Source of the DNA: Chlorobiota bacterium
Lineage (GTDB): Bacteria > Bacteroidota > Ignavibacteria > OLB7
Length of the DNA: 64,000 bases
Assembly: GCA_028287785.1 (NCBI GenBank)
Contig: JAQBOZ010000017.1
Span: 72,225-136,224, forward strand
Reading direction: 5' to 3'
The notes beneath the pieces were generated by a model. The model ran no database searches. It saw only the letters and a list, made by a program, of their open reading frames with translations, and was not told the DNA's origin. Of the stretch, positions 41,947 through 63,415 are shown one piece after another. Numbering within the stretch: position 1 is the first letter of the stretch; each line of letters begins with the position of its first letter. A program made the translations under genes and the position numbers.

Positions 41947-42160
41947 TGAAGTCCGGAAATATCTCGAAAAGAGCAGGGGATATTCGCCGTGGGGATATAT
42001 CGGGAAAATCGAATATACGCATTCGCGCGGAGTGAGGGTTTGCCCGGTTGCCCGGTTCGTGGGTTCGCCCCCACCATCCACCGGTTCTCCGTCCTATCTT
42101 TGCGGTGGAATCTGAAAAGGTATGCCAACCGTCAGCGCATCGATCACGGACTTCGATATC

Positions 42161-43492
42161 ATGGATCATGTCGTCATTATCGGCAATGGGGTTGCCGGCA
42201 TCACGGCCGCCCGGCATATCCGCAAGCTGAGCGACCGGCCGATTACGGTGATCTCCGCCGAGACCGATCACTTCTTCTCGCGCACGGCCCTGATGTATAT
42301 CTACATGGGACAGCTCACCTACGAAGGGACCAAACCGTACGAGGACGACTTCTGGCCGAAGAACCGGATAGCGCTGGTGCGGGGTCGCGTGGAGCGGCTG
42401 GAGACGGAGCGTCGCCGCCTGACGCTTGGCGACGGAAGCGAAATCGAGTACGGCTCCCTGATCATCGCCACCGGATCGCGACCCAACATGTTCGGCTGGC
42501 CGGGGGAGACCCTGGAGGGGGTCCAGGGCCTGTACAGCATTCAGGATCTGGAGTCGATGGAGCGATGGACCGCCGGGATCACGCGCGCCGTGGTGGTCGG
42601 CGGCGGGTTGATCGGGATAGAGATGGCGGAGATGCTGTATGCGCGCGGCATCGGGGTGACGTTTCTGGTGCGCGAGCGGAACTACTGGGACACCATCCTT
42701 CCGCCGGAGGAATCGCTGATGGTGGAGCGGCATATCAGGTCGCACGGCATCGATCTCCGCACGGCGACGGAGCTGCGGGAGATTCTGTCGGATGCGGAGG
42801 GTCGCGCCCGCGCCGTGGTCACGACGCGGGGGGAGGAGATCCCCTGCGGGTTCGTGGGGTTGACGGTGGGGGTATCGCCGAACATCGGCGTGGTGAGCGG
42901 TTCCGCCGTGGAGTGCAATCGCGGCGTGCTGGTGGATGAATATTTCCGGACCAGCATTCCCGGCGTCTACGCGATCGGCGATTGCGCCGAGTTTCGCGAT
43001 CCGCGAGCGGATCATCCCGCGATCGAGCAGTTGTGGTACACGGCGAAGATGCACGGGGAGACGGTTGCGCGGACCATCTGCGGCATCCCGGCCCGCTACG
43101 CCCGCGGCGTCTGGTTCAACTCGGCGAAGTTTTTCGATATCGAGTATCAGACCTACGGCTACGTCTGGAGCCGGCTTCGGGAGACGGAGGAAACCCTTTA
43201 CTGGGAGCATCCCGACGGACGGAAGGCGATCAGGATCAACTACTCGAAGATGGATGGCCGGCTGCTCGGGATGAACCTGCTCGGGATCAGATATCGCCAG
43301 GATGTCTGCCGGAAATGGGTGGAGGAGGGGGCTGATATCGGGACGGTGCTGGGAAATCTCTCCGAGGCGAATTTCGATCCCGAATTCCACCGGCGATACG
43401 AGGCGGAGGTGGTAAGGCTCTACAACGAGCGGAACCCCGGCGGCGCGGTCGTGGTGAAGCGGAAGGGGATGCTGGCGCGGTTCTTCTCATGA
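42161..43492 (+). CDS. NAD(P)/FAD-dependent pyridine nucleotide-disulfide family oxidoreductase
   Basis: Two Rossmann dinucleotide motifs (VVIIGNGVAG and AVVVGGGLIGIEMA) and a GDCA motif near the C-terminus. Confidence 0.7.
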   Translation: MDHVVIIGNGVAGITAARHIRKLSDRPITVISAETDHFFSRTALMYIYMGQLTYEGTKPYEDDFWPKNRIALVRGRVERLETERRRLTLGDGSEIEYGSLIIATGSRPNMFGWPGETLEGVQGLYSIQDLESMERWTAGITRAVVVGGGLIGIEMAEMLYARGIGVTFLVRERNYWDTILPPEESLMVERHIRSHGIDLRTATELREILSDAEGRARAVVTTRGEEIPCGFVGLTVGVSPNIGVVSGSAVECNRGVLVDEYFRTSIPGVYAIGDCAEFRDPRADHPAIEQLWYTAKMHGETVARTICGIPARYARGVWFNSAKFFDIEYQTYGYVWSRLRETEETLYWEHPDGRKAIRINYSKMDGRLLGMNLLGIRYRQDVCRKWVEEGADIGTVLGNLSEANFDPEFHRRYEAEVVRLYNERNPGGAVVVKRKGMLARFFS

Positions 43493-43534
43493 TCCGGCGT
43501 CCCGACGGGAGATCACAACAAGCTGGAGATTGCG

Positions 43535-44929
43535 ATGAGCGATCGTGATGGAAGCCTTCAACTGACGGGGACGATGTCCGGCGATACCGGCGGGATGGGA
43601 AAGGCCGGTATCGCGGCGGTGGCGGCCGGGCTGCTGGTGATGCTGGGCGCGGCCTGCGGCGGCGGGATATCCCCCATGCTCTTTATGCTGGCGGGGCCGG
43701 GGCTGATCGTGGCCGGGGCGCTGGCCTATATCCTTCCACATCACCTCCGGCGCTCCGCATCGGCGCAGAACAACGGCGTGATGTTCTCCGGCGCAACCAC
43801 GCGCGGCGCGATTGCATGGGGGCTGGGGGTGGCGATCACCGGCTTCTACGTGCTCCTCTACTGGTGGCCCCAGACGCTGGCGGGGCTGATCCGCATGTTC
43901 GATCCGCTGAGCATGCGTCTCCGCGGCATCCCGGCCGATCACTGGTTCATGTACGGGGCGTTCTATACCCTCGCCGTGCTGGTGATGGGAGCGCGGGCGC
44001 TGCTGAAATACCGTCATAACCGCTACCAGATCATCCGCACCCTTTCGGTCATCTTCTTCCAGCTCGTCTTCGCGTTTCTGATCCCGGCCACGCTTCAGCT
44101 CTTCAAGCAGCCGGAATTCTACTTCACCTACTTCTGGCCGCTGAAGCCCTACTACCTTTTCCCCGACGGCGTGAAGTCGCTGGAGATGGCCGGAGGGCTT
44201 GGCCCGTTCATGATCCGCTGGGCGGTGATGATGACGTTCGTTGCAACCCCCGTGCTGACCTATTTCTTCGGCAAGCGGTGGTACTGTTCGTGGGTTTGCG
44301 GGTGCGGCGGGCTGGCGGAGACCGCGGGCGATCCCTACCGGCAACTGGCGAGCACATCGTTGAGGTCGTGGAAGATCGAGCGATGGATGATCTACTCCGT
44401 GCTGCTGTTCATTACCATTACCACGGCGCTCCTCTGGATCAACTCCGCGGCGCAGGGAGCCCTGCTCGGGGGGGCTTCGCGCGGGTTCGCGGATGTCTAC
44501 GGCTTTCTGATCGGCGGGATCTTCTCCGGCGTGGTCGGCGTCGGCTTCTATCCGATCATGGGGGCGCGCGTCTGGTGCCGTTTCGGCTGCCCGATGGCGG
44601 CTGTGCTGGGGATCATCCAGAAATACTATTCGCGGTTCAGGATCACCACCAACGGCGGGCAGTGCATCTCCTGCGGAAACTGCTCCACGTACTGCGAGAT
44701 GGGGATCGATGTGCGATGGTACGCGCAACGGGGGGAGAACATCATCAGAGCCTCCTGCGTGGGGTGCGGGGTCTGCGCCAACGTCTGCCCGCGCGGCGTG
44801 CTGTCGCTGGAGAATGGCCCGATGGAGGGGCGGTACAACGGAGCGCAGTTCGTCGGCACGGCGGAGGTGATCATCCCGGCGCTGAACGGGGAGCCGGAAC
44901 GGACACGGCAGTTGAGGTATATCGATTGA
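43535..44929 (+). CDS. Membrane-bound 4Fe-4S ferredoxin-type protein (NapH/MauN-like)
   Basis: Multiple TM helices, a CSWVCGCGG motif and two C-terminal CxxCxxCxxxCP ferredoxin motifs. Confidence 0.6.
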   Translation: MSDRDGSLQLTGTMSGDTGGMGKAGIAAVAAGLLVMLGAACGGGISPMLFMLAGPGLIVAGALAYILPHHLRRSASAQNNGVMFSGATTRGAIAWGLGVAITGFYVLLYWWPQTLAGLIRMFDPLSMRLRGIPADHWFMYGAFYTLAVLVMGARALLKYRHNRYQIIRTLSVIFFQLVFAFLIPATLQLFKQPEFYFTYFWPLKPYYLFPDGVKSLEMAGGLGPFMIRWAVMMTFVATPVLTYFFGKRWYCSWVCGCGGLAETAGDPYRQLASTSLRSWKIERWMIYSVLLFITITTALLWINSAAQGALLGGASRGFADVYGFLIGGIFSGVVGVGFYPIMGARVWCRFGCPMAAVLGIIQKYYSRFRITTNGGQCISCGNCSTYCEMGIDVRWYAQRGENIIRASCVGCGVCANVCPRGVLSLENGPMEGRYNGAQFVGTAEVIIPALNGEPERTRQLRYID

Positions 44930-45320: not shown

Positions 45321-45776
45321 TCACCCGTTGCCGATCCGATCCCCACGCAGTTCATCGCGAACCCGCATCAGGATCCGGCCAAGCATGTTCCTGCCGCTGC
45401 CGTCGCCGCCATCGCCCCAGTAGCTGTCCCTCTTCGTATGCTCGATGATCTCCGCGTCGCCGGTATCGAGGAGCGTGGCTGCCAGCTCCGGGTGCTGGCG
45501 GAACTTCGTTCTGACGGCGACGAGCATCACCTCATCCCTGACCGCCTCCCAGTCCGGGCGGAGCGGACGTTTCCTGTCGCGCCCCTTCCTGGCGGCGATC
45601 ATGGGCGAGGGGGTAAGGCGGATCTCCTCATCGTGCCCGGTGCCGGGAAATTTGCTCCCCTGGAAGTAATGTTCGCTCGTCGGCCAGACCTTTCCATCGA
45701 TTTCGATGGGATAGGCGGCGAAGTTGGAGAAGCATCCGTGAGCGTCCTTTGTGCCGTAGAATCGTATAGTGCTCAT
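45321..45776 (-). CDS. NADAR family protein (YbiA-like, DUF1768)
   Basis: FYG...GCFSNF...SEHYFQGSKF motif set typical of NADAR/YbiA proteins. Confidence 0.7.
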   Translation of the reverse strand: MSTIRFYGTKDAHGCFSNFAAYPIEIDGKVWPTSEHYFQGSKFPGTGHDEEIRLTPSPMIAARKGRDRKRPLRPDWEAVRDEVMLVAVRTKFRQHPELAATLLDTGDAEIIEHTKRDSYWGDGGDGSGRNMLGRILMRVRDELRGDRIGNG

Positions 45777-45976
45777 AGCGGTTTACGGGTTGGTCCTGAA
45801 CGATATTCCGTTCGCCCGCGCCGGCCTGTCGGGGGGGGGATGCCGGGCAATCGAGAGGAACCTTCAATCTACCAAATTCGCCCGAACAGGCCGCGCGTTC
45901 CGGTACATCCTGCAACGTCCCTTCCGCTTGTGCGGAGCCATCGCTTCGCTATCTTTGCTCTCTGCATCCGATCGTC

Positions 45977-46175
45977 AGGTGTCCTGGGAGAAGCCAGGAA
46001 GAATAGGGAATGCCGTGCGCCCGCAAGGGCTAATCGGCAGCGGTTGCGCCGCTGTAACGGGCGACGACCTCTCCAACTGAGCGCTCAACAACCGAGTGCC
46101 GGGCCACTGTGAGCTGCTGCTCACGGGAAGGCCGGAGAGTTCGAATGACCCCGAAGCCAGAAGACCTGCCTGATG
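45977..46175 (+). promoter_or_regulatory. Cobalamin (B12) riboswitch aptamer; the expression platform probably extends to about 46355
   Basis: Seen directly: AATAGGGAATGCCGTGCG...GCAGCGG...GGGCCACTGTGAGCTGCTGCTCACGGGAAGGCCGG...CCCGAAGCCAGAAGACCTGCC. Block for block this matches the conserved core and the B12 box of the E. coli btuB leader, as recalled from the RF00174 consensus. Confidence 0.8.
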
Positions 46176-46355
46176 ATCCTCATCCACGATCCCATTGGGA
46201 TCAGCTTTCCCGCCAAGGAAAGTGATGAGGAGATGGTCTACACTCCGTTTCGGGGAGAGGCGCCGCGCCTCCCGTTCCCGCCACTGTAGCATCATTTCCC
46301 GTCGTCCATCGTTACCGCTCCCGACCTGGCATCGGAGGGCATCGGCGTTCGTGAA

Positions 46356-48650
46356 ATGAATCTTCGCTTTCTGCTTCCACTCGTCCTTTTCCTGGGAGGG
46401 CTTTCCATTGCCCAGGGACAATTCCATCACATCCAGACGGACAAATCTCCGTCGTTTATTTTCAATGATCCGGTCAAGGGGCACATTCATGTGATCACCC
46501 TGGGGGTGGACGCCAACTTCGACGGCGTTTTCCAGCCCGGCTCCGACGTGGCTCCGCGCTGGTTTGTGCTGGATGCCGCTACCGAGGAGGAGGTGGGCTC
46601 CACCACATTCACGGGGTTCTTCAACTCCTTTCCGCTTCGCGCCGGCGTTGATCTGAAGGGACGCCGGCTCTACGTGCCGCAGCTCGGCCGCGTCCGCGCG
46701 TTCGATATCGACGATCTGGGGATCGTCCAGGATTCCGTCTCCACGACGAATGCCTCCACCGTCATGTTCGATTCCCTGACGGGATATATCACCCTCTCCT
46801 TCCGCCCCGGATTTACCGTTCCGGGATGGACCGAGACGATCGACCCGCGCACCGGGAAGCGTATCTCGATGATGAACACCGGCGTCAATCCCGGCATGGC
46901 CGTGCCGAAGGGGGCTGAAACGTATACCATCACCGAGGGGGGGCCGGGCATTCCCTCGACGGTCGCCTACAGCCGCTACCGGGCAAGCCTCTACGCCGGG
47001 GCGCTCGGCGGCAACGGGAATCATATGGTCGTGCGCGGAACCGCCGCCTATCTCGTGATGAGCGCCACCAACCAGATTCGGATCATCGACACCAGAACGG
47101 GGAGGGATACCCTCTCTTCGCCGATCGCTGTTGGCACGGCCGGATTCGGGAGCCCCCGCATGCTCGACGTTCAGGGGGACAGCGTGCTGGTGGTGGCGAC
47201 ATATGCCAGGGATATCCGACGATTCAGAATCGCGACCGGGGCGATGATCGACAAGATCGCGCTCCCCGGCGCCGCGGAGGCCGTTGCCGTGCGCGACTCG
47301 CTGGCATACGTGGCGATTCCGCTCGATTCCGCCCGCCATACCGATTCCCTGGTGGTGGTGGTGAACCTGAACAGCGGCCGGCCGGTCGATACGCTCGCCG
47401 TGGGGCCGAACCCGCTCGGGCTCTTTATCGATCGCCTCGGAAATCTTCAGGTGGTTGTGGCCGATACCATCCCCGGCGCCGGCCGGCTGGTGAGCTACGA
47501 GCGCGGAACGCTTCTCAAGAAGGGGGAGCGCCCGCTCCACGGCGCGATCAGCAACCCGCTGCATATGGCCTACGATAATTCCGACGACTCGCTCTTTATC
47601 GTCCTTTCCGATACTCTCTTCGCGTTCGCGGTTTCCGGCTCCGGCTCGCCGTTGCGCGCCGCCTATACCGATACGCTCGCCAGGGGGGCTCTCTTCGGCG
47701 TCAGCGGCGCGGGCGATTATCTCCTGATCACCGAACGCCCGAAGAACCCAGGGGAGGATTCATCCTATGTCCACATCGTGAGCCGGAAGAGCGGAGGGGA
47801 GGTGGCGAAATTCATGGCGGGTTACCTGGTGATGATGGCGCTGCCGGTGGTTTCCGGTCGCGGCGACCATGCGATGAGCTTCTACGCTCTCAACCAGGGA
47901 GGGTTTGCGGCGACTGCATCCACCCTGACCTCCTTCGAGTTCCAGCCCGATATCCTCGGCCCCGATACGCTGGGAAGCGGCGCGAACCATATAACGTTGG
48001 AGGGACTGAGCGCCGATAACGACAAGGCCCTGGTGACGATGAACGGGAACCACAGCGTTGTCCGGCTGGACCTCGATACCTGGACGGTGATGCGCCGCAC
48101 GTCGACGAAGACGACCGGGTTCGATGGCCCGCGCGAGACGATGGCGCTCTCCCCGTCGACGTTGCTCGTGAGCACCTACGCCGGCGATGTGCGCCGGATC
48201 ACGGTGAGCGATAACTCCGTCCGGGTGATCCCGGTCTATGGAAAGGCGGAGGGGATGGCGCGCGCCGGAAGCAAAGTCTACGTGGCCCTGCCGTTCGCTC
48301 CCGATGCCACCTACACGCCCTCCGCAAGCGTCGCGGTGATCGATACCGCCGCGATTGCATCGGTACGTCGTGATGATGCGATCGCATCCGCCACGACGCT
48401 GGAGCAGAACTATCCGAACCCCGTATCGTCCGGCACCGAGATCCGTTTCTCGGTCGCCGTGGCCGGCAGAGTGACCCTTGCCCTCTACAGGCCGGATGGC
48501 GCCCTTGCCGGCACGATCGTCGACAGGGAGATGGAGCCGGGAAGCTATACCGCGCGGATGGACGTGGCCGGGCTTGCCAGCGGATCATACATCTACACGC
48601 TTCGCTCCGGAGGAACGCTTCTGAGCAGAGTGATGAAGGTCGTGCGATAA
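46356..48650 (+). CDS. Secreted YVTN/YncE-like beta-propeller repeat protein with T9SS C-terminal sorting domain
   Basis: Signal peptide, repeated beta-propeller blades and a C-terminal T9SS CTD (NYPNPVSSGTEIRF...VTLALYRPDG...SGSYIYTL). First gene downstream of the B12 riboswitch. Confidence 0.6.
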   Translation: MNLRFLLPLVLFLGGLSIAQGQFHHIQTDKSPSFIFNDPVKGHIHVITLGVDANFDGVFQPGSDVAPRWFVLDAATEEEVGSTTFTGFFNSFPLRAGVDLKGRRLYVPQLGRVRAFDIDDLGIVQDSVSTTNASTVMFDSLTGYITLSFRPGFTVPGWTETIDPRTGKRISMMNTGVNPGMAVPKGAETYTITEGGPGIPSTVAYSRYRASLYAGALGGNGNHMVVRGTAAYLVMSATNQIRIIDTRTGRDTLSSPIAVGTAGFGSPRMLDVQGDSVLVVATYARDIRRFRIATGAMIDKIALPGAAEAVAVRDSLAYVAIPLDSARHTDSLVVVVNLNSGRPVDTLAVGPNPLGLFIDRLGNLQVVVADTIPGAGRLVSYERGTLLKKGERPLHGAISNPLHMAYDNSDDSLFIVLSDTLFAFAVSGSGSPLRAAYTDTLARGALFGVSGAGDYLLITERPKNPGEDSSYVHIVSRKSGGEVAKFMAGYLVMMALPVVSGRGDHAMSFYALNQGGFAATASTLTSFEFQPDILGPDTLGSGANHITLEGLSADNDKALVTMNGNHSVVRLDLDTWTVMRRTSTKTTGFDGPRETMALSPSTLLVSTYAGDVRRITVSDNSVRVIPVYGKAEGMARAGSKVYVALPFAPDATYTPSASVAVIDTAAIASVRRDDAIASATTLEQNYPNPVSSGTEIRFSVAVAGRVTLALYRPDGALAGTIVDREMEPGSYTARMDVAGLASGSYIYTLRSGGTLLSRVMKVVR

Positions 48651-49633
48651 TGCGATCATCATCATACCGCCGGCCGGGAGCCATCCCCGGCCGGTTGCGC
48701 CGGCTTGCCGCCGCCGCGCTGCTCTTCCTGGCAATCGCGTCGCCGGGCCACGCCCAGTGGGAGAACACCGGCGCCGATGCCGTGGAATCCTTCACCCCCG
48801 GAACCGGGGCGGGGCTTGGCTCCGATCACTATCCCGAGAATGTCCTCGGCCTTCCCGACTCGGCCGCCCGAGCCGATATCCCCACGATCGATCCCGTTCA
48901 GATCCTGTCGCTCGGGCTCGGCGGCGAAATCGTCCTCCGGTTCGATCGCGCGCCGATCACCGATATCCCCGGCCCCGACTTCACGGTGTTCGAAAACGCG
49001 TTCACCTATATCATCGGTGGAAAGGAGAAGACCTATGCCGAGCCGGGCGAGGTTGCGGTAAGCCGGGACGGCGTTCACTTTCTGACATTTCCGTACGACT
49101 CCATCACCCTCCGCGGGTGCGCCGGCGTTGGCCCCACCAACGGCGGGAACGATCCCGGCGATCCGCTTGTCTCCGGCGGCAACAGCTTCGATCTTCACGA
49201 TCTCGGGGTCGACTCGGTTCGATGGGTTCGCATCCGCGATGTGACCTCGATCGTCAAGGATCATCCCTCGCATCCCTTCTGGGACCCCACGCTGACCGGG
49301 TTCGATCTTGATGCCGTTGTGCGCGCCACGAAATCCCATCCGGGCGGCATCGCCACGGCTCCCACGGGCGCGCACGCTTCGGCGGTGCTTTCGCCCAACC
49401 CGGTTGCCGGACAGGGGGTGCTCCGGGTTGATGCTCCCATATCGGGAGACCTCACGGCGCGGGTGACCGATCTTCTCGGAAGAGAGGTGATGACAATCTC
49501 CGGCGGCGCTATCGACCGAGGCCGGAACGTGCTTCCGTTCGATGCCTCCCGGCTGGCCGATGGCGTCTACTTCATAGCCGTGGCGATCGATGGACATCCC
49601 GTGACGATGCTCAGGGCCCAGGTATGTAGATGA
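48650..49633 (+). CDS. Secreted hypothetical protein with T9SS C-terminal sorting domain
   Basis: Signal peptide and C-terminal CTD (LSPNPVAGQGVLRV...DGVYFIAVAIDGHPVTMLRAQV). No recognisable catalytic motif. Its start overlaps the upstream stop (TAATG) and its stop overlaps the TBDR start (ATGA). Confidence 0.5.
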   Translation: MRSSSYRRPGAIPGRLRRLAAAALLFLAIASPGHAQWENTGADAVESFTPGTGAGLGSDHYPENVLGLPDSAARADIPTIDPVQILSLGLGGEIVLRFDRAPITDIPGPDFTVFENAFTYIIGGKEKTYAEPGEVAVSRDGVHFLTFPYDSITLRGCAGVGPTNGGNDPGDPLVSGGNSFDLHDLGVDSVRWVRIRDVTSIVKDHPSHPFWDPTLTGFDLDAVVRATKSHPGGIATAPTGAHASAVLSPNPVAGQGVLRVDAPISGDLTARVTDLLGREVMTISGGAIDRGRNVLPFDASRLADGVYFIAVAIDGHPVTMLRAQVCR

Positions 49634-51618
49634 GAGCCCTTGCCCTCCATATCTCCCTGCTCGTGCTTTCCGGGGCATGCGCGGCGGCCCAGCCCGGAAC
49701 CCCGGAGCCGGGGAAGGGAAAGGATTCCGCGAGAGTCTACCACGCTCCTGAAGTGCGCGTGGAGGCACGGTCGATACTGACGCGGGTATCGCGGGGAACG
49801 CAGCCGCGCGCGGTTGTGACCAGGGCGCAGATCGAGGCGGCAAACGGCTTCGACCTTTCCGATGCCGTTGCGTACGCGCCGGGGGTGTTCGTGAAGCAGT
49901 ATGGCGGCGTCGGCGGGCTGCGGACGATATCGCTGCGCGGCACATCGGCGCAGCAGACGGTGATCCTGATCGATGGGATCCGGTACCGGAGCAGCGCGGA
50001 CGGGGGGTTCGATTTCAGCAATCTTCCCTCGGCATCGGTCGATCAGGTGGAGGTGCTCCGCGGCGGCAACGCGGCGCTCTACGGCGCCAATGCACTCGGC
50101 GGCGTGATCAACGTGGTGACGCGAGCGCCATCGGCCGGCGGGACGGCGCTTACGGCGCGAGGGGGATATGGCTCGTATGGTCAGCGGGAGATGGGCATCG
50201 GGGGGAACGGCGCGGCGGGAAACCATGTGTGGGATGCCGGTTTCAACGCCACCGCCACAAACGGCAACTATCCGTTCAGCTTCAATGAGTTCGGTGCCAC
50301 CTCGACCTTCGAGCGGGATAATGCGGACTTCTCCAACTATTTCGGCCGTGGAGGCTGGGCATATCATCGCGATGATGGCCTGCGGCTTTCGGCCTCGATG
50401 CAGGGCTATCGATCCGAACGTGGCGTCCCCGGCGCGGTGGTGCAGGGAAACCGCGAACAGCTCCATGCGCGCCTGAATGAGAGCGATCTGTTTGCCGCCG
50501 CCGCCGCTTCCTGGCCCACGGAGGAGTGGCAGTTCTCCATCTCGGCGAGCGGTCGCCTGAACGCCCTGGGCTACCGCGATCCCGACGCGCGCGTTGCCGG
50601 CCCGTCCGGCATCGACGACGAGTATCGGGAGAGGGAGGGGAACTTCATGGGGAGGGTGAGGCGGGCAATCGGTGACCATGGCGTTGCGGAGGGGACGGCG
50701 GAGGTTTCTCAGACGCATCTTCGCGGCGACAATCTGGACCCGGCGCTGGGCTCCGCCGCATCGCGGACTTCGGTGAGCGGCGCGATCGCAACAAACTGGC
50801 TTTATGACGATGGTCTGTTCGGCTGCGAAACCGCCCTCGAAGCCGGCCTTCGTCTCGATCTCTTCGATGATCTTCCCACCGCGCTGAGCCCATCGGCCGG
50901 GTTGATCTGGCGCGCCGGCTCCACCCCGCTCCGGCTGCGGGCGCATGGTGGGCTGAACTACAGGGCGCCGAGCTTCGCCGAGCAATACTATCTCAACTAC
51001 GGCAACGCGAACCTGCGGCCCGAGCGTTCCATGAGCGGCGACCTTGGGGCTACCTACGAGGTGGGGGAGACGTTCGCCCTGGAATCGAGCTTCTTCATGA
51101 TCGCCACGCGCGATCAGATCGTCTCGGTGCCGCGCAGCCCCGTAAGCTGGAGCGCGGCAAACGTCGAGCGGGTTCTTTCGCGCGGCCTGGAGCTGGGGGG
51201 ATCGGGGACGCTGTTCGATGGGATGCTTGGGCTTCGGGCCTCCTACACGCTGACACGGGCCGAGGACAGGAGCGGGGGAACGGTGGATGGAAAGCTGCTG
51301 GTGTATGCGCCCGAGGAGTTGACCAACGGCATCGTGGATCTGCGGCTGGGTCGTTACGGCATCGGAGCGGCGTGGCAGTACGTCGGTCATCGCTTCACGC
51401 TCCCCGCGAACGATCCCGGTTCCGCGCTGCCACGTTACGGCCTGCTTGCCGCAAATATCTCCGCGCGCTGGATCATTGGCGGCGTGGGGGTGAAGGCGCG
51501 CCTGGAATGCTCGAACATGTTCGATACGGAATATCAGGTGGTGAGGAATTATCCCATGCCGGGGAGAACGTTTCTCGGAAGGGTCGAGATCGATTTTCAT
51601 GATGGGCCGCAACCATGA
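49630..51618 (+). CDS. TonB-dependent receptor, BtuB-like size class
   Basis: Plug domain (DQVEVLRGGNAALYGANALGGVINVVTR) and a 22-strand barrel-like C-terminal region with terminal ...RVEIDF. In a riboswitch-led operon. Confidence 0.8.
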   Translation: MRALALHISLLVLSGACAAAQPGTPEPGKGKDSARVYHAPEVRVEARSILTRVSRGTQPRAVVTRAQIEAANGFDLSDAVAYAPGVFVKQYGGVGGLRTISLRGTSAQQTVILIDGIRYRSSADGGFDFSNLPSASVDQVEVLRGGNAALYGANALGGVINVVTRAPSAGGTALTARGGYGSYGQREMGIGGNGAAGNHVWDAGFNATATNGNYPFSFNEFGATSTFERDNADFSNYFGRGGWAYHRDDGLRLSASMQGYRSERGVPGAVVQGNREQLHARLNESDLFAAAAASWPTEEWQFSISASGRLNALGYRDPDARVAGPSGIDDEYREREGNFMGRVRRAIGDHGVAEGTAEVSQTHLRGDNLDPALGSAASRTSVSGAIATNWLYDDGLFGCETALEAGLRLDLFDDLPTALSPSAGLIWRAGSTPLRLRAHGGLNYRAPSFAEQYYLNYGNANLRPERSMSGDLGATYEVGETFALESSFFMIATRDQIVSVPRSPVSWSAANVERVLSRGLELGGSGTLFDGMLGLRASYTLTRAEDRSGGTVDGKLLVYAPEELTNGIVDLRLGRYGIGAAWQYVGHRFTLPANDPGSALPRYGLLAANISARWIIGGVGVKARLECSNMFDTEYQVVRNYPMPGRTFLGRVEIDFHDGPQP

Positions 51619-52745
51619 GCGCGATTGCGCGGGATATCCATATGCCGATAAGAAAATGCGTAGCCACGCGGCTTTGCGGGGCGATCGTGCCATCCGCTCT
51701 GCTTGCGTTGGTGCTTCTGCTGGCCGGCTGCATATCCGATCCCACACTCACATCTCCTCCGGTGGTGAGCGCCGGAGCGCATGGGGTGCTGGTGGTGAAC
51801 GAGGGGGTATGGAAGCAGGATAATTCCACGCTCACCTTCTACAACCCCGATAGCGGCGGGCCGGTTCAGGACTATTTCGCGGCGCGCAATCCCGGCCTGC
51901 GTCTGGGGGATCTCGGCAACAGCATCGTTACCTGGAAGGGACGGGGATATATCGCCGTCTCCACGTCGCGGGCGGTGGAGGTGATCGATCTGGCGACCGG
52001 GCATTCCCTGGGGCGCGTCCGTCTGAACGCCCCGAACGAGCCGCGCATGATCGCGATCATCGACAGCGCGACCGCGTTTGTCACAACCTTTGCCGATTCG
52101 GTGATCCGTTTCAACCCGATGACGCTGGCAACGACGGGATCGTTCGCCGTGGGGCCGGCCCCGGAGGGGATCGCGTATGCCGCCGGCCATCTTTTTGTGG
52201 CGAACTCCGGGCTCGGCAATCTGCGGCGCACCGAACCAGGGGCGGGGACGATCTCGGTGCTCGATCCGGCAAGCGGCGCGGAGCTGGCGATGCTTCCCAC
52301 CGGCACCAACCCGCTGAGCGTTCATTATCTGCCATCGCGGGGGCGCGTCTACGTGCTGGCCCGTCCCATTCTCCCCGATACGCTCGGCGCCGTGGTGGAA
52401 TACGATCCGGCCTCGTTGCGCGAGGTTCGTCGCTGGCCGGTGGCCGGTGGCTACGACATGGCTGTCGATGACGGGCGCGGGATCATCTATGTGATGCATG
52501 GGGAGGGCGTGGCGCGGATCGATCCATCGGTTGCGGGGGATAATGTGAGGGGGCTGGTGCAACTGGGCGAGGCGGGGGCGATGTTCTATTCGATCGGGGT
52601 GGAGCCGGTAAGCGGCGATATCTATCTGGGGACCACGAACGGGTACTCAAGCGTGCCGGCGGCGGTGATGATATACGACCGCGCTGGCGCGTTCAAATCC
52701 CGTTTTCCCTGCGGCATCTATCCCGGCGATTTCGCGTTCTATTGA
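51615..52745 (+). CDS. YncE-like beta-propeller surface lipoprotein (BtuG-like candidate)
   Basis: Lipobox LLLAGC in the signal peptide, beta-propeller repeats, immediately downstream of and overlapping the TonB-dependent receptor. Confidence 0.55.
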   Translation: MSAIARDIHMPIRKCVATRLCGAIVPSALLALVLLLAGCISDPTLTSPPVVSAGAHGVLVVNEGVWKQDNSTLTFYNPDSGGPVQDYFAARNPGLRLGDLGNSIVTWKGRGYIAVSTSRAVEVIDLATGHSLGRVRLNAPNEPRMIAIIDSATAFVTTFADSVIRFNPMTLATTGSFAVGPAPEGIAYAAGHLFVANSGLGNLRRTEPGAGTISVLDPASGAELAMLPTGTNPLSVHYLPSRGRVYVLARPILPDTLGAVVEYDPASLREVRRWPVAGGYDMAVDDGRGIIYVMHGEGVARIDPSVAGDNVRGLVQLGEAGAMFYSIGVEPVSGDIYLGTTNGYSSVPAAVMIYDRAGAFKSRFPCGIYPGDFAFY

Positions 52746-52861
52746 GCGCCTGTCGTCGAAACGAAAACGGGCGTTCCGATGATTCGGGACGCCCGTTGCT
52801 GTTTACTATCGATGGGGTGCGTTAGCGTTGTTCCATTGCCGGTTGGCGGAAGGGGTCTCCG

Positions 52862-58997: not shown

Positions 58998-59564
58998 ATG
59001 GGACGTTGTTCAGGGATCACACATCGCGGAGGATGGCTGGCGGCGCTGCTGCTGCTGCTCTGCGGAAGCGTTCTGACCGCGCAGGTGCGGACGCTGAATC
59101 TTCGCGAGATGGTCGGCTCGGCCGGGACCATCTTCATCGGCTCCGTCGCCGGGGTTTCCTCGGGATCGGATGAACATGGCGATATCGTCACCTACACCAC
59201 ATTCCGGGTGGAACAGCCCATCTACGGCGGCGCCGCCGGAACCGTCACCGTCAAACAGCTTGGCGGGGCCTCCGGCGGGCTCTCCACAAGGCTCGAACAT
59301 ATGCGCTACTTCCGCACCGGCGAGCGTGTGCTGGTGGCCTTCTATCCCATCAGCTCCCTTGGCTTCACCAGCCCCATCGGGCTTTATCAGGCCGTCTGGA
59401 ACGTCACGTCGGACGGGCAGGTGCTGGGGGTGGGGGATACATCGCTTGGGGGACTGGACGCGCTGCTCAGGCGATATCACCTGGACCGCAACGGCGGCAC
59501 GGTGGCGGCTTCCACGTTCGTTTCGATGATCGATGATCTTCTCAGGGAGGCGGGAAAATTATGA
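58998..59564 (+). CDS. Secreted hypothetical protein (signal peptide, Gly-rich)
   Basis: 188-aa ORF with an N-terminal signal peptide. Its stop overlaps the start of the giant downstream gene (ATGA). Confidence 0.45.
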   Translation: MGRCSGITHRGGWLAALLLLLCGSVLTAQVRTLNLREMVGSAGTIFIGSVAGVSSGSDEHGDIVTYTTFRVEQPIYGGAAGTVTVKQLGGASGGLSTRLEHMRYFRTGERVLVAFYPISSLGFTSPIGLYQAVWNVTSDGQVLGVGDTSLGGLDALLRRYHLDRNGGTVAASTFVSMIDDLLREAGKL

Positions 59565-62500
59565 GAACGATCACAATGATTCTTGCCGCGGCGATTATCG
59601 CCCTGACGGCGCTTCCGACGCATGCGGGGGGGCCGCTGACCGCCAACGGGACCACGGCGCGGAGATATCCCGCCGGCTCCATTCCCATCTCCTTCAAGAC
59701 CGATCAGGGGGCGCTCGGCTCCTTCTCCAACGGCACGGCAACCGGGATCGCGGTCTACGCGTTCCAGCAGTGGGATAACGTGGTCACTGCCGCTCTCTCC
59801 TTCAACAACGCGGGGCAGCTCCCGCGTGATGTCACCACCGCCGCCGATGCGTTTATCTCCGGCGCCGGACAGTTCAGCGATGGCGTCAACCCGGTGGTGT
59901 TCGACAACGACGGCTCCATCACCGACGCCAAGCTGGGGGTGGGGGCCAGGAACTCCGTGCTCGGCTTCGCCAGCTCCGCCTACGCCGGGAACAACTATGT
60001 GGAGGGATACGCCATCATCAACGGCTTCCTGAGCGGCGCCGGGGGCGTTGCGGAACAGGATGAGTACAAGGCGACGATCACCCATGAGATCGGGCATTTT
60101 CTCGGGCTGGGACACTCGCAGGTTTCCATGCACGCCGATTACGCCACGATGTATCCAGTCATCGAGAAGACCGCGCAGAAAACCCTTTCACCCGACGATC
60201 AGGCTGCCATCTCCATTCTCTATCCGGCCGCGGGGTATACCGCCACGGTCGGCGGCATCACCGGAACGGTGCGGCGGCTTCCCAACACCTCCCTGAGCGG
60301 CGTGAATGTGATCGCCGAGGACTCCGCGACGGGCGCGGCCTACAGCACCGTGGTCGATTACTTCTCCGGCGGGAAATCGGGGTTTGACAACGCTCCTGCG
60401 GCAACCGGCACCTACACATTCACGGGGCTGCCGCCGGGGAGATACTTCGTCAGGATCGAGCCGGTCACGGCAACCTTTACCGGCGGTTCGTCGGTCGCCA
60501 GCTACGATACGCCGGCCAACATGAATATCGATCGCGAATGGTACAACGGCACGGCGGAGAACGGGGATATGCTCCTCGACAACGTCAACGAGAAGACGGG
60601 CGTGGTGGTGGCCGCCGGCGCCACGACATCCAACATCAGCTTCCTCGAAAACGAGTCCATCACGATCAGCTCCCTGGTCTATCACGACGGCACTCCCTAT
60701 TATCTCTTCGATCTGCCGCAGGCGGGGATCAGCCGCTATGCCGTGCGGTTTACGGCTCCCGGCACCGGATCGCTGGTGGGGGTGAAGTTCAAGCTGGGCG
60801 CCGGCTCGGTGCTGCCGCTCAACGGCACGCTTACCGTCACGGTCCACGCCAACGCGCCGGGGAGCGTGGCGGGGGTGCCGGGGACGGCGCTCGGATCGGT
60901 GACGATCCCGTACAGCGATATCGCCGCCGATCAGAACGTGGAGGTCTACCTGCGCGGCATAGGGTTGCCGATAAACTTCCCGGCCGGAACCAACTTCCAC
61001 GTCTCGCTCTCCACGAACGGCGTCGGCACGCTTGAGCTTTTTACCGATAACGGGAGCACGACGCAGAACCGGACATCGTACTACAACGGCACCGTCTGGC
61101 GGAATTTCCCGGAGGGGGGCTATCAGGCGGGATATAATCTCGTGATGTCCGCGGTCTACTCCTCCTCCATCGCCGGCACGCCGCAGCCCGCTCTCTCGGC
61201 CACGCCCACGTCGCTCCAGTTCGGACGGGTCAGGCCGGGGAACAGCATCACCAGGACAGTTACCGTGACCAACACCGGCACCGGCCTGCTGACGGTGAAC
61301 ACGACGCCGATCCTCGGGCGTGACAGCCTCGATTATTCGGTCACGGCGGGGAAGGGGCCGTTCACGGTGGACCCGGGATTGTCGCACGATATCAGCGTGC
61401 GGTTCACCCCGCGGGACGCGGGGGGAGTGGAGGACGGGACGAAGTCGGCGATGATGGCGATCGTCAGCAACGCGGCGACATCCCCCGATAATGTCCCGCT
61501 CAGCGGTCGCGCGGTCGCGCCGCTCGTCATGAAGGTGACATCGGCCGTGGACTTCGGTTCGCGACGGGTTGGGGGCACCTATATCATCGATACGGTCCTG
61601 TTCAGGAACGCCGGCAACGATACGCTTCACGTCACCGGCGTAACCGCCCTCGGCCCGGATGACGGCAGCGGCCTCCGGCTGCTGAACGGCAGTGGTGCCA
61701 CCATTGTCCCACCGGATTCCAGCTTCCGTGCCCGCATCCAGTTTACGCCGACGGAACGGCGCATATATACGCTCAACCTCCGCATCGTCCACGACGACCC
61801 GAAGAACACCCCGACCGATATCACGATCGCCGGCCGCGGCGTGGCGGCCATCATCTCCACGGCGGGGACCTTCTCGGTGGGCAGGGCCCGCGTGGGAACC
61901 ACCATCGACGCGCCGCCGCTCTTTGTGCGGAACAGCGGGGATATTCCGGTGAGGATCACATCGCTCACGATAAGCGGCGCCAACGCGACGGAGTTCATTG
62001 TTCTTTCACCGGTGCCGCCGGTGACGCTGGCTCCCGGCGATTCTCTTCCGATCCGCTTCCGGTTCCATCCGATGGCAATCGGAATTCGCGTGGCGACGCT
62101 CCAGGTGGGGGCGGATTCGCTGGCGCCGATCAGTATCCAGCTCAATGGCGAGGGGATACAGGGGGCGCTCTCCTTCCGTTCGGCGGCCGTCGATTTCGGC
62201 GATGTTCCTCTGGCATCCAACGGCGAGCGTGATATCGCCGTGGTGAACTCCGGCACCGATACGGCAACCATCAGCTCGGCCGATGTCACGGGGTCCGGGT
62301 TCTCGCTCGTGACGCAGTCGCTCGCGGGACGGAAGCTCCTTCCGGGGGATAGCGTCATCGTCCGTGTCCGATTTGCGCCGACGGTTGCGGGCACTTCATC
62401 GGGGAGCCTCCGCATCGCCAGCAACGGCTCCGATCCGCTGATCGTCGCTTCGCTCTCCGGCCGGGGAACGGCGGCGGGGCTTACGCTCAACCGCACCCGC

Positions 62501-63415
62501 GTCGATTTCGGAGCGGTGGCCACCGGCATATCGCGCACCGATTCGTTTACCGTGCGGAACACCGGCAACGCTCCTCTGACCGGCGTGACGTTGACGTTGA
62601 CTGGGCCTGACGCCGCGGCGTTCGAGATCATCTCGCCGACCCCCCTTGCCGTTTCCCCCGGAGGGGCGCAGACCGTCCTGGTTCGGCTGAAGCCGCAGGC
62701 ATCGGAGCGCGCGCTGTCGGCGGGCGTTGTGGTGCAGCCCGCCGGTGGATCATCGGCCGAGGTAACGCTGTCGGCAACGATTGGTAGCGGCATTGCCGCC
62801 ACGGTTGCCGCCGTCGATTTCGGAAGTAGGCTCCCCGGCGGGGCTTACGATACCACGGTGGTCATCAGGAACATCACATCCGGCAGCATCACCATCTCCT
62901 CCATCGCCGCCAGTGCCGGCAAGGATGGCGCTTCCGGCGATTATTTCCGCTCGATGAGCCCCGCGCCGGTGATGATCCCGCCGAACGATTCGATCGCGAT
63001 TGTCGTGCGGTTTTCGCCGGCCGCCGGAACGGGTCGGTACACCGGATCGCTGGCGATCGCCGTCAACGGCTCCGCGCCGCTGGTGATCTCACTCGTCGGC
63101 CGGGCTTCGGCAGTCGGCGGCGTGGCCGATGGGATCGTGGCCGGGGAGGGGATGCCTGCACTACTGCCGGTTGCGCCGAACCCCGCGGCCGGGGTCATAG
63201 AGATCGGGTATCGCGCCGGTGGAGGGATGATGCCGGTGGAGATCGTCATTACCGATGCAATCGGCAGGGAGGTTGCGGTTGTCTATCAGGGAACCGCAAC
63301 GCGCACTGACGAGCGCGTTCGATTCAACACCTCACCGCTGCCGTCCGGGAGATATTACGTGCTTCTCCGATCGGCGCGCGGCAGCGTTACGCAACCGCTG
63401 GTGATCGTGAAATAG
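59561..63415 (+). CDS. T9SS-secreted matrixin-like (M10 metzincin) metalloprotease with multiple Ig-like ASH / choice-of-anchor-D type repeats
   Basis: Signal peptide. Catalytic domain with HEIGHFLGLGHS (HExxHxxGxxH), a Met-turn ATMYP, and matrixin-like AFQQWDNV and DDQAAISILYP. At least seven ~100-aa repeats begin with V/LDFG...V.N.G...L.I. C-terminal T9SS CTD. Confidence 0.75.
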   Translation: MRTITMILAAAIIALTALPTHAGGPLTANGTTARRYPAGSIPISFKTDQGALGSFSNGTATGIAVYAFQQWDNVVTAALSFNNAGQLPRDVTTAADAFISGAGQFSDGVNPVVFDNDGSITDAKLGVGARNSVLGFASSAYAGNNYVEGYAIINGFLSGAGGVAEQDEYKATITHEIGHFLGLGHSQVSMHADYATMYPVIEKTAQKTLSPDDQAAISILYPAAGYTATVGGITGTVRRLPNTSLSGVNVIAEDSATGAAYSTVVDYFSGGKSGFDNAPAATGTYTFTGLPPGRYFVRIEPVTATFTGGSSVASYDTPANMNIDREWYNGTAENGDMLLDNVNEKTGVVVAAGATTSNISFLENESITISSLVYHDGTPYYLFDLPQAGISRYAVRFTAPGTGSLVGVKFKLGAGSVLPLNGTLTVTVHANAPGSVAGVPGTALGSVTIPYSDIAADQNVEVYLRGIGLPINFPAGTNFHVSLSTNGVGTLELFTDNGSTTQNRTSYYNGTVWRNFPEGGYQAGYNLVMSAVYSSSIAGTPQPALSATPTSLQFGRVRPGNSITRTVTVTNTGTGLLTVNTTPILGRDSLDYSVTAGKGPFTVDPGLSHDISVRFTPRDAGGVEDGTKSAMMAIVSNAATSPDNVPLSGRAVAPLVMKVTSAVDFGSRRVGGTYIIDTVLFRNAGNDTLHVTGVTALGPDDGSGLRLLNGSGATIVPPDSSFRARIQFTPTERRIYTLNLRIVHDDPKNTPTDITIAGRGVAAIISTAGTFSVGRARVGTTIDAPPLFVRNSGDIPVRITSLTISGANATEFIVLSPVPPVTLAPGDSLPIRFRFHPMAIGIRVATLQVGADSLAPISIQLNGEGIQGALSFRSAAVDFGDVPLASNGERDIAVVNSGTDTATISSADVTGSGFSLVTQSLAGRKLLPGDSVIVRVRFAPTVAGTSSGSLRIASNGSDPLIVASLSGRGTAAGLTLNRTRVDFGAVATGISRTDSFTVRNTGNAPLTGVTLTLTGPDAAAFEIISPTPLAVSPGGAQTVLVRLKPQASERALSAGVVVQPAGGSSAEVTLSATIGSGIAATVAAVDFGSRLPGGAYDTTVVIRNITSGSITISSIAASAGKDGASGDYFRSMSPAPVMIPPNDSIAIVVRFSPAAGTGRYTGSLAIAVNGSAPLVISLVGRASAVGGVADGIVAGEGMPALLPVAPNPAAGVIEIGYRAGGGMMPVEIVITDAIGREVAVVYQGTATRTDERVRFNTSPLPSGRYYVLLRSARGSVTQPLVIVK

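Follow-up and report, generated by a model that had tools for sequence, protein, structure and literature searches.

The DNA considered here is a window of 64,000 nucleotides (nt), the whole stretch that was analysed, from contig JAQBOZ010000017.1 of a Chlorobiota bacterium (GenBank assembly GCA_028287785.1). A cobalamin riboswitch stands in it at the head of four forward-strand genes whose stop and start codons overlap (46356-52745). When the entire window was scanned with Rfam 15 (cmscan, gathering thresholds), a single match was returned, the Cobalamin family RF00174 at 45960-46187 (+), with 102.4 bits against a gathering threshold of 31.5 and an E-value of 1.7e-24. The match covered the model from end to end (positions 1-189 of 189), and RF00174 was the top model of clan CL00101 at this place. 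Judged from sequence, there is hardly any doubt that this element is a class-I (adenosylcobalamin-type) cobalamin riboswitch heading a corrinoid-capture operon. An initial annotation made from the letters alone had proposed a cobalamin riboswitch upstream of a four-gene operon; both proposals were borne out, the riboswitch by the strong result of the RF00174 covariance scan that the annotation had named as its check, and the operon by the overlapping reading frames and their B12-related matches to BtuB1 and BtuG.

The sequence blocks AGGGAA, GUGC...AAUC, GCCACUG and GGGAAGGC align to the RF00174 consensus with posterior probabilities that are mostly '*', and the alignment displays helices P1, P2 and P3, the hairpin following P3, the small hairpin that carries loop L5, the peripheral extension and the B12 box. 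The P6 peripheral extension, which is of the class-I, adenosylcobalamin-selective type, is matched over model positions ~80-155, including the hairpin formed by GCCACUG and GGGAAGGC. Every core motif quoted in the initial annotation was found on the forward strand in its place, and the beginning of the element, put there at 45977, lies further upstream, with the 5' strand of P1 at 45970-45979 (Table 1). Two peculiarities of the aptamer were also observed. An extra short helix (46019-46030, GCCC-GCAA-GGGC, capped in the window by a GNRA loop) sits within the loop of the post-P3 hairpin; related leaders have this helix in variable lengths, reaching ~50 nt in L002, with a stem that by eye covaries. 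Moreover, the peripheral extension of the window aptamer contains a 24-nt insertion.

Table 1. Positions of the features discussed in the text, numbered from the first letter of the window.
Feature	Position	Strand	Remarks
NADAR-domain gene	45321-45776	-	Pfam E 8.6e-37
Promoter-like TTG-N19-TATCTTTG	45928-45957	+	Bacteroidetes/Chlorobi type; TTG 45928-45930, then TATCTTTG 45950-45957; read in sequence, function predicted
Cobalamin aptamer	45960-46187	+	RF00174 match; class-I peripheral extension
P1, 5' strand	45970-45979	+	pairs with 46169-46178
AATAGGGAATGCCGTGCG	46002-46019	+	aptamer motif read in sequence
GCAGCGG	46038-46044	+	
L5, UUGCG	46044-46048	+	
GCCACTG	46104-46110	+	
GGGAAGG	46126-46132	+	
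B12 box, AAGCCAGAAGACCTGCC (RNA AAGCCAGAAGACCUGCC)	46154-46170	+	
P1, 3' strand	46169-46178	+	10-bp P1
GATCCTCATC	46175-46184	+	strand of helix alpha
Three-way junction	46177-46231	+	directly 3' of P1; helix alpha closes hairpins A and B
Helix alpha	46177-46184 with 46224-46231	+	UCCUCAUC with GAUGAGGA
Hairpin A	46188-46202	+	palindrome hairpin
ATCCCATTGGGAT	46189-46201	+	palindrome of the initial annotation, within hairpin A
Hairpin B	46204-46223	+	loop CGCCAA 46211-46216, candidate L13
GATGAGGAG	46224-46232	+	opposite strand of helix alpha
Helix D	46229-46242 with 46285-46299	+	GGAGAUGGU-CUACA with UGUAG-c-AUCAUUUCC; variable G+C-rich insert 46243-46284
Pyrimidine-rich, G-poor tract	46295-46328	+	between helix D and hairpin C
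UCCCGUC	46297-46303	+	alternative partner of GAUGAGGA (GAUGAGG); extends helix D, excludes helix alpha
Hairpin C	46318-46338	+	stem CUCCCGA/UCGGAGG, loop CCUGGCA 46325-46331
Gene 1	46356-48650	+	764 aa; signal peptide, two beta-propellers, putative type IX secretion system (T9SS)-type C-terminal domain
Gene 2	48650-49633	+	327 aa; jelly-roll beta-sandwich and putative T9SS-type C-terminal domain
Gene 3	49630-51618	+	662 aa; BtuB-type TonB-dependent receptor
Gene 4	51615-52745	+	376 aa; lipoprotein (lipobox LLAGC), BtuG-like beta-propeller
Operon-end terminator-like hairpin	52766-52797	+	14-bp stem, 9 G-C pairs, then GCUGUUUACU

The nature of the operon was deduced from its third and fourth genes. 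The product of gene 3 contains a Plug domain (E 7.8e-26), and its best relative of solved structure is BtuB1 of B. thetaiotaomicron (8blw_A, E 3.7e-39), which it matches over its full length (residues 30-651); E. coli BtuB was matched in the plug region (E 5e-26) and ranked behind BtuB1. The best NCBIfam model was the TonB-B12 equivalog with 186 bits, and as this is below the cut-off of 599.7 bits, gene 3 is regarded as a divergent member of the BtuB family. A phmmer search with gene 4 gave 8ptf_A (E 6.6e-21), 8blw_B (E 3.5e-20) and 8bmx_D (E 4.4e-15), and over the BtuG structures 8PTF/8PTD, 8blw_B and 8BMX/8BMY/8OKV the E-values ranged from 7e-21 to 5e-13. The entries 8PTF, 8blw_B and 8BMX/8BMY are structures of BtuG1/BtuG2 (PMC10404256; 10.1101/2024.02.16.580637). 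The Pfam model DUF5074 was matched slightly under its cut-off (26.9 bits). By these similarities, gene 4 encodes a BtuG-like lipoprotein with a putative function in corrinoid binding.

The product of gene 1 was modelled with a confidence score (pLDDT) of 86.7 as two beta-propellers followed by a C-terminal beta-sandwich. It resembles the product of gene 4 (BLASTP E 5e-9) as well as BtuG1 (8PTF, phmmer E 3e-5), and a Foldseek search with the model returned generic double-propeller proteins with low TM-scores. Going by the sequence matches, gene 1 is a distant relative of BtuG and a candidate secreted corrinoid binder. The family is rare, as just 16 relatives turned up in 5.8 billion protein clusters, and is always found directly behind this riboswitch; an identical protein occurs in a metagenome-assembled genome (MAG) labelled "Chlorobi bacterium", and a look-up of the exact protein gave no record. 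The public name of gene 1, "Endonuclease/exonuclease/phosphatase", was rejected, as no such domain was found and no search backed the name. Gene 2 was modelled (pLDDT 86.9) as a jelly-roll with a C-terminal beta-sandwich. Comparison of this model with the PDB revealed no informative neighbour, just weak matches resembling the fold of the glycoside hydrolase family 2 (GH2) N-domain. Its family comprises ~216 relatives, named 'cell surface protein' at NCBI, in Kapabacteria, Ignavibacteria and Bacteroidota MAGs, some of which carry PF17653. Assignment of gene 2 to BtuH (DUF4465) was also rejected: neither gene 1 nor gene 2 matched DUF4465 at E<=10, and nothing BtuH-like was among the top 50 PDB matches.

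For the C-terminal domains of genes 1 and 2, the sorting-domain model Por_Secre_tail scored 19.7 and 21.1 bits against a cut-off of 27, and TIGR04183 scored 19.3 and 22.6 bits against a cut-off of 23, so that both models remained below threshold; several homologues of the two genes carry a precomputed PF18962 domain. A 1284-aa protein encoded elsewhere in the window (59561-63415) combines a matrixin-like metalloprotease region and many ASH/HYDIN-type immunoglobulin domains with a T9SS sorting domain whose score, 29.9 bits, is above threshold; this indicates that the organism uses type IX secretion. The products of genes 1 and 2 are probably secreted by this route. Taken together, the BtuB-like gene 3, the BtuG-like gene 4 and the BtuG relative encoded by gene 1 identify the operon as a BtuB-BtuG type unit of Bacteroidota for the capture and uptake of corrinoids. 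The genes past its end are unrelated (epimerase, RsgA, two-component system). A further terminator-like hairpin, GACGGACAAAUCUCCGUC followed by GUUUAUUUUC (46436-46453), was noticed ~80 nt inside gene 1, over the conserved motif KSPSFIF; terminator-like sites in the region occur at chance level (7 found, 5.6 expected).

Orthologous loci were collected from genome and assembly collections, and four more were obtained by scanning metagenomes with a DNA pattern derived from the leaders; the query for the locus search was a subset of 5 sequences, the alignment of 16 sequences being too divergent. All distinct leaders whose upstream DNA was retrieved, 13 in addition to that of the window, formed the set of 14 leaders on which the counts below are based. 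RF00174 was found 5' of the gene-1 homologue in 13 of the 13 further leaders with 89-114 bits, and in a duplicate locus with a cut 5' end (L010) with 81.7 bits. P1 showed compensatory changes at its inner positions 6-10 (CG/UA, GC/AU, UA/CG/GC and AU/GC/CG variants). In all 14 leaders 180-223 nt separate the B12 box from the start codon. The order gene 1, gene 2, TonB receptor is conserved, and a DUF5074/BtuG gene comes next in most loci. Since the metagenome scan yielded only four further loci, the family appears to be small. Some loci deviate in their content: the BtuG-like gene is absent from one sub-clade (L005/L006/L007/L013), where a PdxB-like 2-hydroxyacid dehydrogenase gene (PF00389/PF02826/PF11890) follows the receptor, and in L008 a methyltransferase gene lies between the receptor gene and the DUF5074 gene. 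The contigs of L002 and L004, which carry the riboswitch-operon unit, are labelled as 'Armatimonadota' and 'uncultured Alphaproteobacteria' MAGs, respectively; their T9SS-type cargo and their synteny with Chlorobiota/Kapabacteria contigs suggest that they may be mis-binned.

The promoter-like element upstream of the aptamer follows the primary-sigma consensus TTG-N17-23-TAnnTTTG described for Bacteroidetes, Flavobacterium and Chlorobaculum (10.1101/172254; PMC7366714). Eight of the 14 leaders have an octamer resembling TAnnTTTG 12-31 nt 5' of their P1 strand, and by eye ~5 of these eight also had a TTG 19-20 nt 5' of the octamer. The riboswitch is thus probably transcribed from this Bacteroidetes-type promoter, whose position would place the transcription start near 45962-45965.

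In order to assess the structure of the ~170-nt spacer that separates the aptamer from gene 1, the pairing of the three-way junction was scored on an alignment that had not been fitted to structure, with partner strands slid by 1-3 columns and 500 shuffled alignments as controls. The junction positions were paired in 96.1% of the alignment cells compared with 42-53% for slid partners, and the covariation score was 0.386 compared with 0.219 in the shuffled alignments, none of which (0/500) reached 0.386. Helix alpha was paired in 100% of the cells across the 14 leaders, and in hairpin B compensatory changes were seen in five of the seven pairs. Further downstream, helix D was paired in 89.5% of the cells (slid partners 41-60%), showed three pairs with compensatory changes and was predicted in every fold, constrained or unconstrained. 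Hairpin C was found de novo by RNAalifold, with 94.9% of the cells paired (slid partners 34-64%) and compensatory changes in five of seven pairs. Its loop, nnUGGCA, is conserved in sequence while the stem covaries; it is kept in the 12 leaders whose hairpin-B loop reads CGCC(A/U)A and is absent in the two with CGCAAA. These results demonstrated that the spacer is a conserved structure supported by covariation.

The fold differs from what had been read by eye. The initial annotation had taken GATCCTCATC and GATGAGGAG as mutually exclusive pairing options and the palindrome ATCCCATTGGGAT as a further competitor; instead, the first two are the two strands of one helix, alpha, and the palindrome forms hairpin A, a conserved part of the junction closed by helix alpha. 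The partner of GAUGAGG that does exclude this helix is UCCCGUC; their duplex is described below. A minimum free energy fold of the full leader (45960-46375), in which the 5' strand of P1 pairs with 46327-46337 and the aptamer is misfolded, was discarded, its pairing not being conserved. A reading of the TGGCA loop as a sigma-54 promoter element was likewise discarded, as the GG-to-GC spacing is 8 nt and not 10 and the flanking stem covaries as RNA. When the platform region alone was searched against Rfam at E<=10, only noise was obtained (RAGATH-10, 15.2 bits, E 2). It was also observed that the tetramer GATC occurs four times in the leader (45970, 46175, 46188 and 46199), on both strands of P1 and both strands of hairpin A, and is kept in most relatives. 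The self-complementary GAUC allows many alternative pairings, and in DNA these tetramers would be Dam-type methylation sites.

The strand GAUGAGG, the 3' side of helix alpha, has two possible partners. In all 14 leaders it can form either helix alpha (-8.3 to -11.2 kcal/mol) or an extension of helix D with UCCCGUC or its counterpart, which is UCCCCAUC in most relatives (-6.8 to -8.3 kcal/mol). The ensemble energy of the platform was nearly the same whether helix alpha was enforced or blocked (mean -72.3 and -72.1 kcal/mol, respectively), with gaps per locus from -4.5 to +4.4 kcal/mol; such near-equality is a signature of a bistable element. Moreover, the exchange positions vary only in ways that preserve the two pairings, by A-to-G changes opposite U. 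It is slightly more probable than not that the exchange between helix alpha and the extended helix D is the switch.

A link between this exchange and the aptamer is offered by loop L5, which reads UUGCG in all 14 leaders where the consensus has UCCCG. The only consistently placed complement of L5 is the loop of hairpin B, CGCCAA, in which CGC can pair with GCG, and AA with UU across a bulged C; among other contiguous 5-nt complements of L5 in the platform, none was consistently placed. In the L014/L020 sub-clade the loop is CGCAAA and matches L5 perfectly over 5 bp. By this complementarity hairpin B is read as carrying L13, and helix alpha with the junction as an elaborated P13; the hairpin-B loop is likely to be the kissing partner of L5. 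In a corrinoid riboswitch that has been dissected, L5-L13 kissing stabilises P13, whose 3' side otherwise pairs downstream, and only three of the kissing-loop pairs matter; bulged kissing loops are also known (PMC10327014). The CGC/GCG pairing corresponds to the three positions that matter most in that case.

The following mechanism would accommodate these observations. Bound corrinoid would close P1 and let L5 (UUGCG) kiss the loop of hairpin B (CGCCAA) as L13. The kissing interaction would lock helix alpha and so withdraw GAUGAGG from the downstream strand, by which the C/U-rich strand 46291-46328 would be exposed. Two routes to silencing would then be open to the freed strand, base pairing to the start region and service as a loading site for Rho. 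The bound state is expected to be OFF because the operon encodes uptake proteins, and proteins for B12 uptake and capture are repressed by B12 wherever they have been studied (PMC10404256). An OFF switch is very probable on these grounds, and the explanation as a whole, comprising a class-I riboswitch, a Bacteroidetes-type promoter, a four-gene corrinoid operon and OFF logic, is only a little less so.

As to the output, no intrinsic terminator consisting of a hairpin and a U-tract was found between the aptamer and the start codon of the window, and in the leader set L008 alone has a U-run after hairpin C. Occlusion of the start site is the first choice for the silencing step, held tentatively and at somewhat less than even probability. 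The strand CAUCAUUUCCC can pair with the Shine-Dalgarno (SD)/AUG region in 8-9 of the 14 leaders, in the window through UCAUUUC (46292-46298) and GAAAUGA (46353-46359), and in just one of the 14 does no other strand pair better with that region. The purine run GGAGGG (46334-46339) is the 3' strand of hairpin C and, at 16 nt from the ATG, lies too far away for a normal Shine-Dalgarno sequence. The 3' strand of P1 and CCUCAUC were tried as anti-SD strands and rejected as not general (Fisher p 0.96 and 0.22); the pairing holds only in the L005/L002/L013 sub-clade. A mini-ORF, GUG AAA UGA (46351-46359), begins 11 nt past GGAGGG in the window and its stop overlaps the AUG of gene 1 (AUGA); it is not conserved in other leaders.

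Several observations weigh against the switch as outlined. The 14 leaders share ancestry, so that the shuffle statistics overstate their independence. Only 2-3 nt are shared by helix alpha and the core of helix D, so that the two could coexist. L5 and the first three bases of the hairpin-B loop are invariant, leaving a kissing loop without internal covariation, and only the L014/L020 sub-clade alters the loop. At the output, pairing between the pyrimidine strand and the start region beats shuffled controls and does not beat natural coding windows (Fisher p 0.23), and the accessibility of the start site, modelled by partition function, was 0.41 with helix alpha enforced and 0.44 with it blocked. 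The earlier proposal of a translational platform in place of a U-tract terminator therefore stands as far as the terminator is concerned, while control of translation is plausible only.

The same riboswitch and strand exchange could also act through Rho-dependent termination, with the C-rich strand ~46268-46328, freed from helix D, serving as a Rho utilization (rut) site and translational control being secondary or absent. This output is possible and would rank shortly behind start-site occlusion, with which it is not mutually exclusive. The tract following UUUCC has a pooled composition of 41% C, 33% U, 11% G and 15% A over the leaders, and in 10 of the 14 the 60-nt segment of highest C/G ratio in the entire leader begins 18-39 nt ahead of UUUCC (here ~46268-46327), but this C-richness may just mirror the purine-rich 5' strand of helix D, and the continuously single-stranded part of ~25-35 nt is short for a rut site. 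All conserved elements of the platform lie 20-130 nt 5' of a start region that is poorly conserved and variably spaced, and neither candidate anti-SD strand showed significant complementarity to the start site, both of which speak for Rho. Control of Rho by riboswitches is known in E. coli, where it is often coupled to translational control (PMC5499598; PMC10946432).

The conserved loop of hairpin C allows a variant in which its UGGCA mimics L5: ligand-free RNA would hold the loop of hairpin B in a kissing interaction with hairpin C, stabilising the ON fold, and ligand would transfer loop B to L5. The predicted energy of the loop B/loop C interaction (GCCA with UGGC) is -5.3 to -9.1 kcal/mol in the 12 leaders with CGCC(A/U)A and ~0 in L014/L020, where loop C lacks UGGC and loop B matches L5 perfectly. 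Both interactions would use overlapping bases of loop B, and the loop-C sequence is kept while its stem covaries. However, this co-variation amounts to a single evolutionary event in one sub-clade, L015 reads CGCCUA in loop B but shows no compensation in loop C, and mismatches are frequent at positions 4-5 of the putative loop-loop helix. The exchange of loops is thus an unlikely possibility. The same low probability applies to the fullest form of the proposal, in which a kissing-loop exchange of L13 (CGCCAA) between L5 (UUGCG) and the decoy UUGGCA of hairpin C is coupled to the strand exchange, and the products of genes 1 and 2 capture corrinoid after secretion by the T9SS, the first as a tandem BtuG-like propeller and the second as a member of a new beta-sandwich family. 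We know of no riboswitch for which kissing-loop and strand exchange with a decoy loop has been described.

It is very improbable that 46177-46340 is a separate element fused behind the aptamer, such as a second sensor, a protein-binding domain or a small-RNA-like module, rather than the expression platform. Its ~165 nt with five covarying helices and conserved loops exceed the needs of most platforms and match no Rfam family, but it begins 0-1 nt after P1, its first helix shares the strand directly following P1, it holds the only plausible L13, and, as sought with the B12 box for an anchor, it lies between the aptamer and the same gene in 14 of the 14 leaders. Activation of the operon by corrinoid would be more improbable still: activating corrinoid riboswitches exist (PMC10327014), and in L005/L002 the strand freed in the absence of helix alpha strongly complements the SD/start region (-19.0 and -17.6 kcal/mol), but no other sub-clade shows this complementarity (all leaders together, Fisher p 0.96) and operons for uptake and capture proteins are repressed by B12 in the systems studied (PMC10404256).

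Upstream of the promoter, the divergently oriented NADAR-domain gene described in the initial annotation was recovered on the reverse strand (Table 1). A run of nine G residues (45831-45839; C9 on the reverse strand) lies ~55 nt 5' of the NADAR start codon and ~90 nt 5' of the riboswitch promoter; such a run may be prone to slippage or sensitive to assembly. Upstream of NADAR, two genes in 42122-44929, for a pyridine-nucleotide disulphide oxidoreductase (E 1e-50) and then a polytopic 4Fe-4S protein, are apparently unrelated to the riboswitch.

The analysis gives a firm assignment of a B12-responsive regulon in a poorly known lineage of Kapabacteria/Chlorobi-like MAGs, and draws attention to two protein families, uncharacterised and probably secreted by the T9SS, that may bind corrinoids outside the cell. 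Expression platforms are usually idiosyncratic; the one in these 14 leaders is so well conserved that covariation can take it apart, which makes the leaders a compact natural data set. In this platform a three-way junction stands where a simple P13 hairpin would otherwise be, the strand exchange has two balanced states, and a decoy kissing loop may be present. The control region behind the sensor is unusually long, conserved and structured, and the kind of element is itself ordinary: the basic picture of a standard cobalamin riboswitch doing its expected job in the classical btuB-leader context is unchanged. In its platform the known P13/kissing-loop logic is elaborated in a lineage-specific way, and the atypical L5, the junction and the long covarying platform with its balanced strand exchange are particular to this small lineage-specific group.

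Comparison with known systems places these features in context. With Cbl-I riboswitches of RF00174, such as the E. coli btuB leader, the element shares the full-length model match, the B12 box, the AGGGAA/GGUGC core, the GCCACUG...GGGAAGG pair, the P6 peripheral extension, a covarying P1 and the position 5' of a btuB-type receptor gene. It differs in L5 (UUGCG instead of UCCCG), in the extra helix and the peripheral insertion of the aptamer, and in its platform of ~170 nt, which is itself a conserved multi-helix fold and has the ribosome-binding site outside L13. With the corrinoid riboswitch of P. megaterium metE (PMC10327014) it shares the proposed logic, in which L5-L13 kissing stabilises a post-P1 helix whose 3' strand otherwise pairs downstream; a kissing-loop core of three base pairs is sufficient there. 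That riboswitch has an intrinsic terminator downstream, whereas here a pyrimidine strand takes this place, the post-P1 helix closes a three-way junction, and the candidate L13 is carried by a side hairpin. The kissing loops of env8HyCbl and A. halodurans cobT (PMC10327014) contain a bulged nucleotide, as CGC-C-AA with UUGCG would need here; in those cases the bulge is backed by experiment or structure, while here it is predicted from the sequence. Finally, the btuB-btuG loci of B. thetaiotaomicron (PMC10404256, PMC6143338) also combine a B12 riboswitch with a BtuB transporter, a BtuG lipoprotein and further surface-exposed accessory proteins. In contrast to these loci, the two leading genes here carry T9SS C-terminal sorting domains (as sub-threshold matches) rather than lipoprotein signals, the operon includes neither a DUF4465 (BtuH) domain nor btuFCD genes, and the host is a Chlorobi/Kapabacteria-like MAG rather than a Bacteroides.

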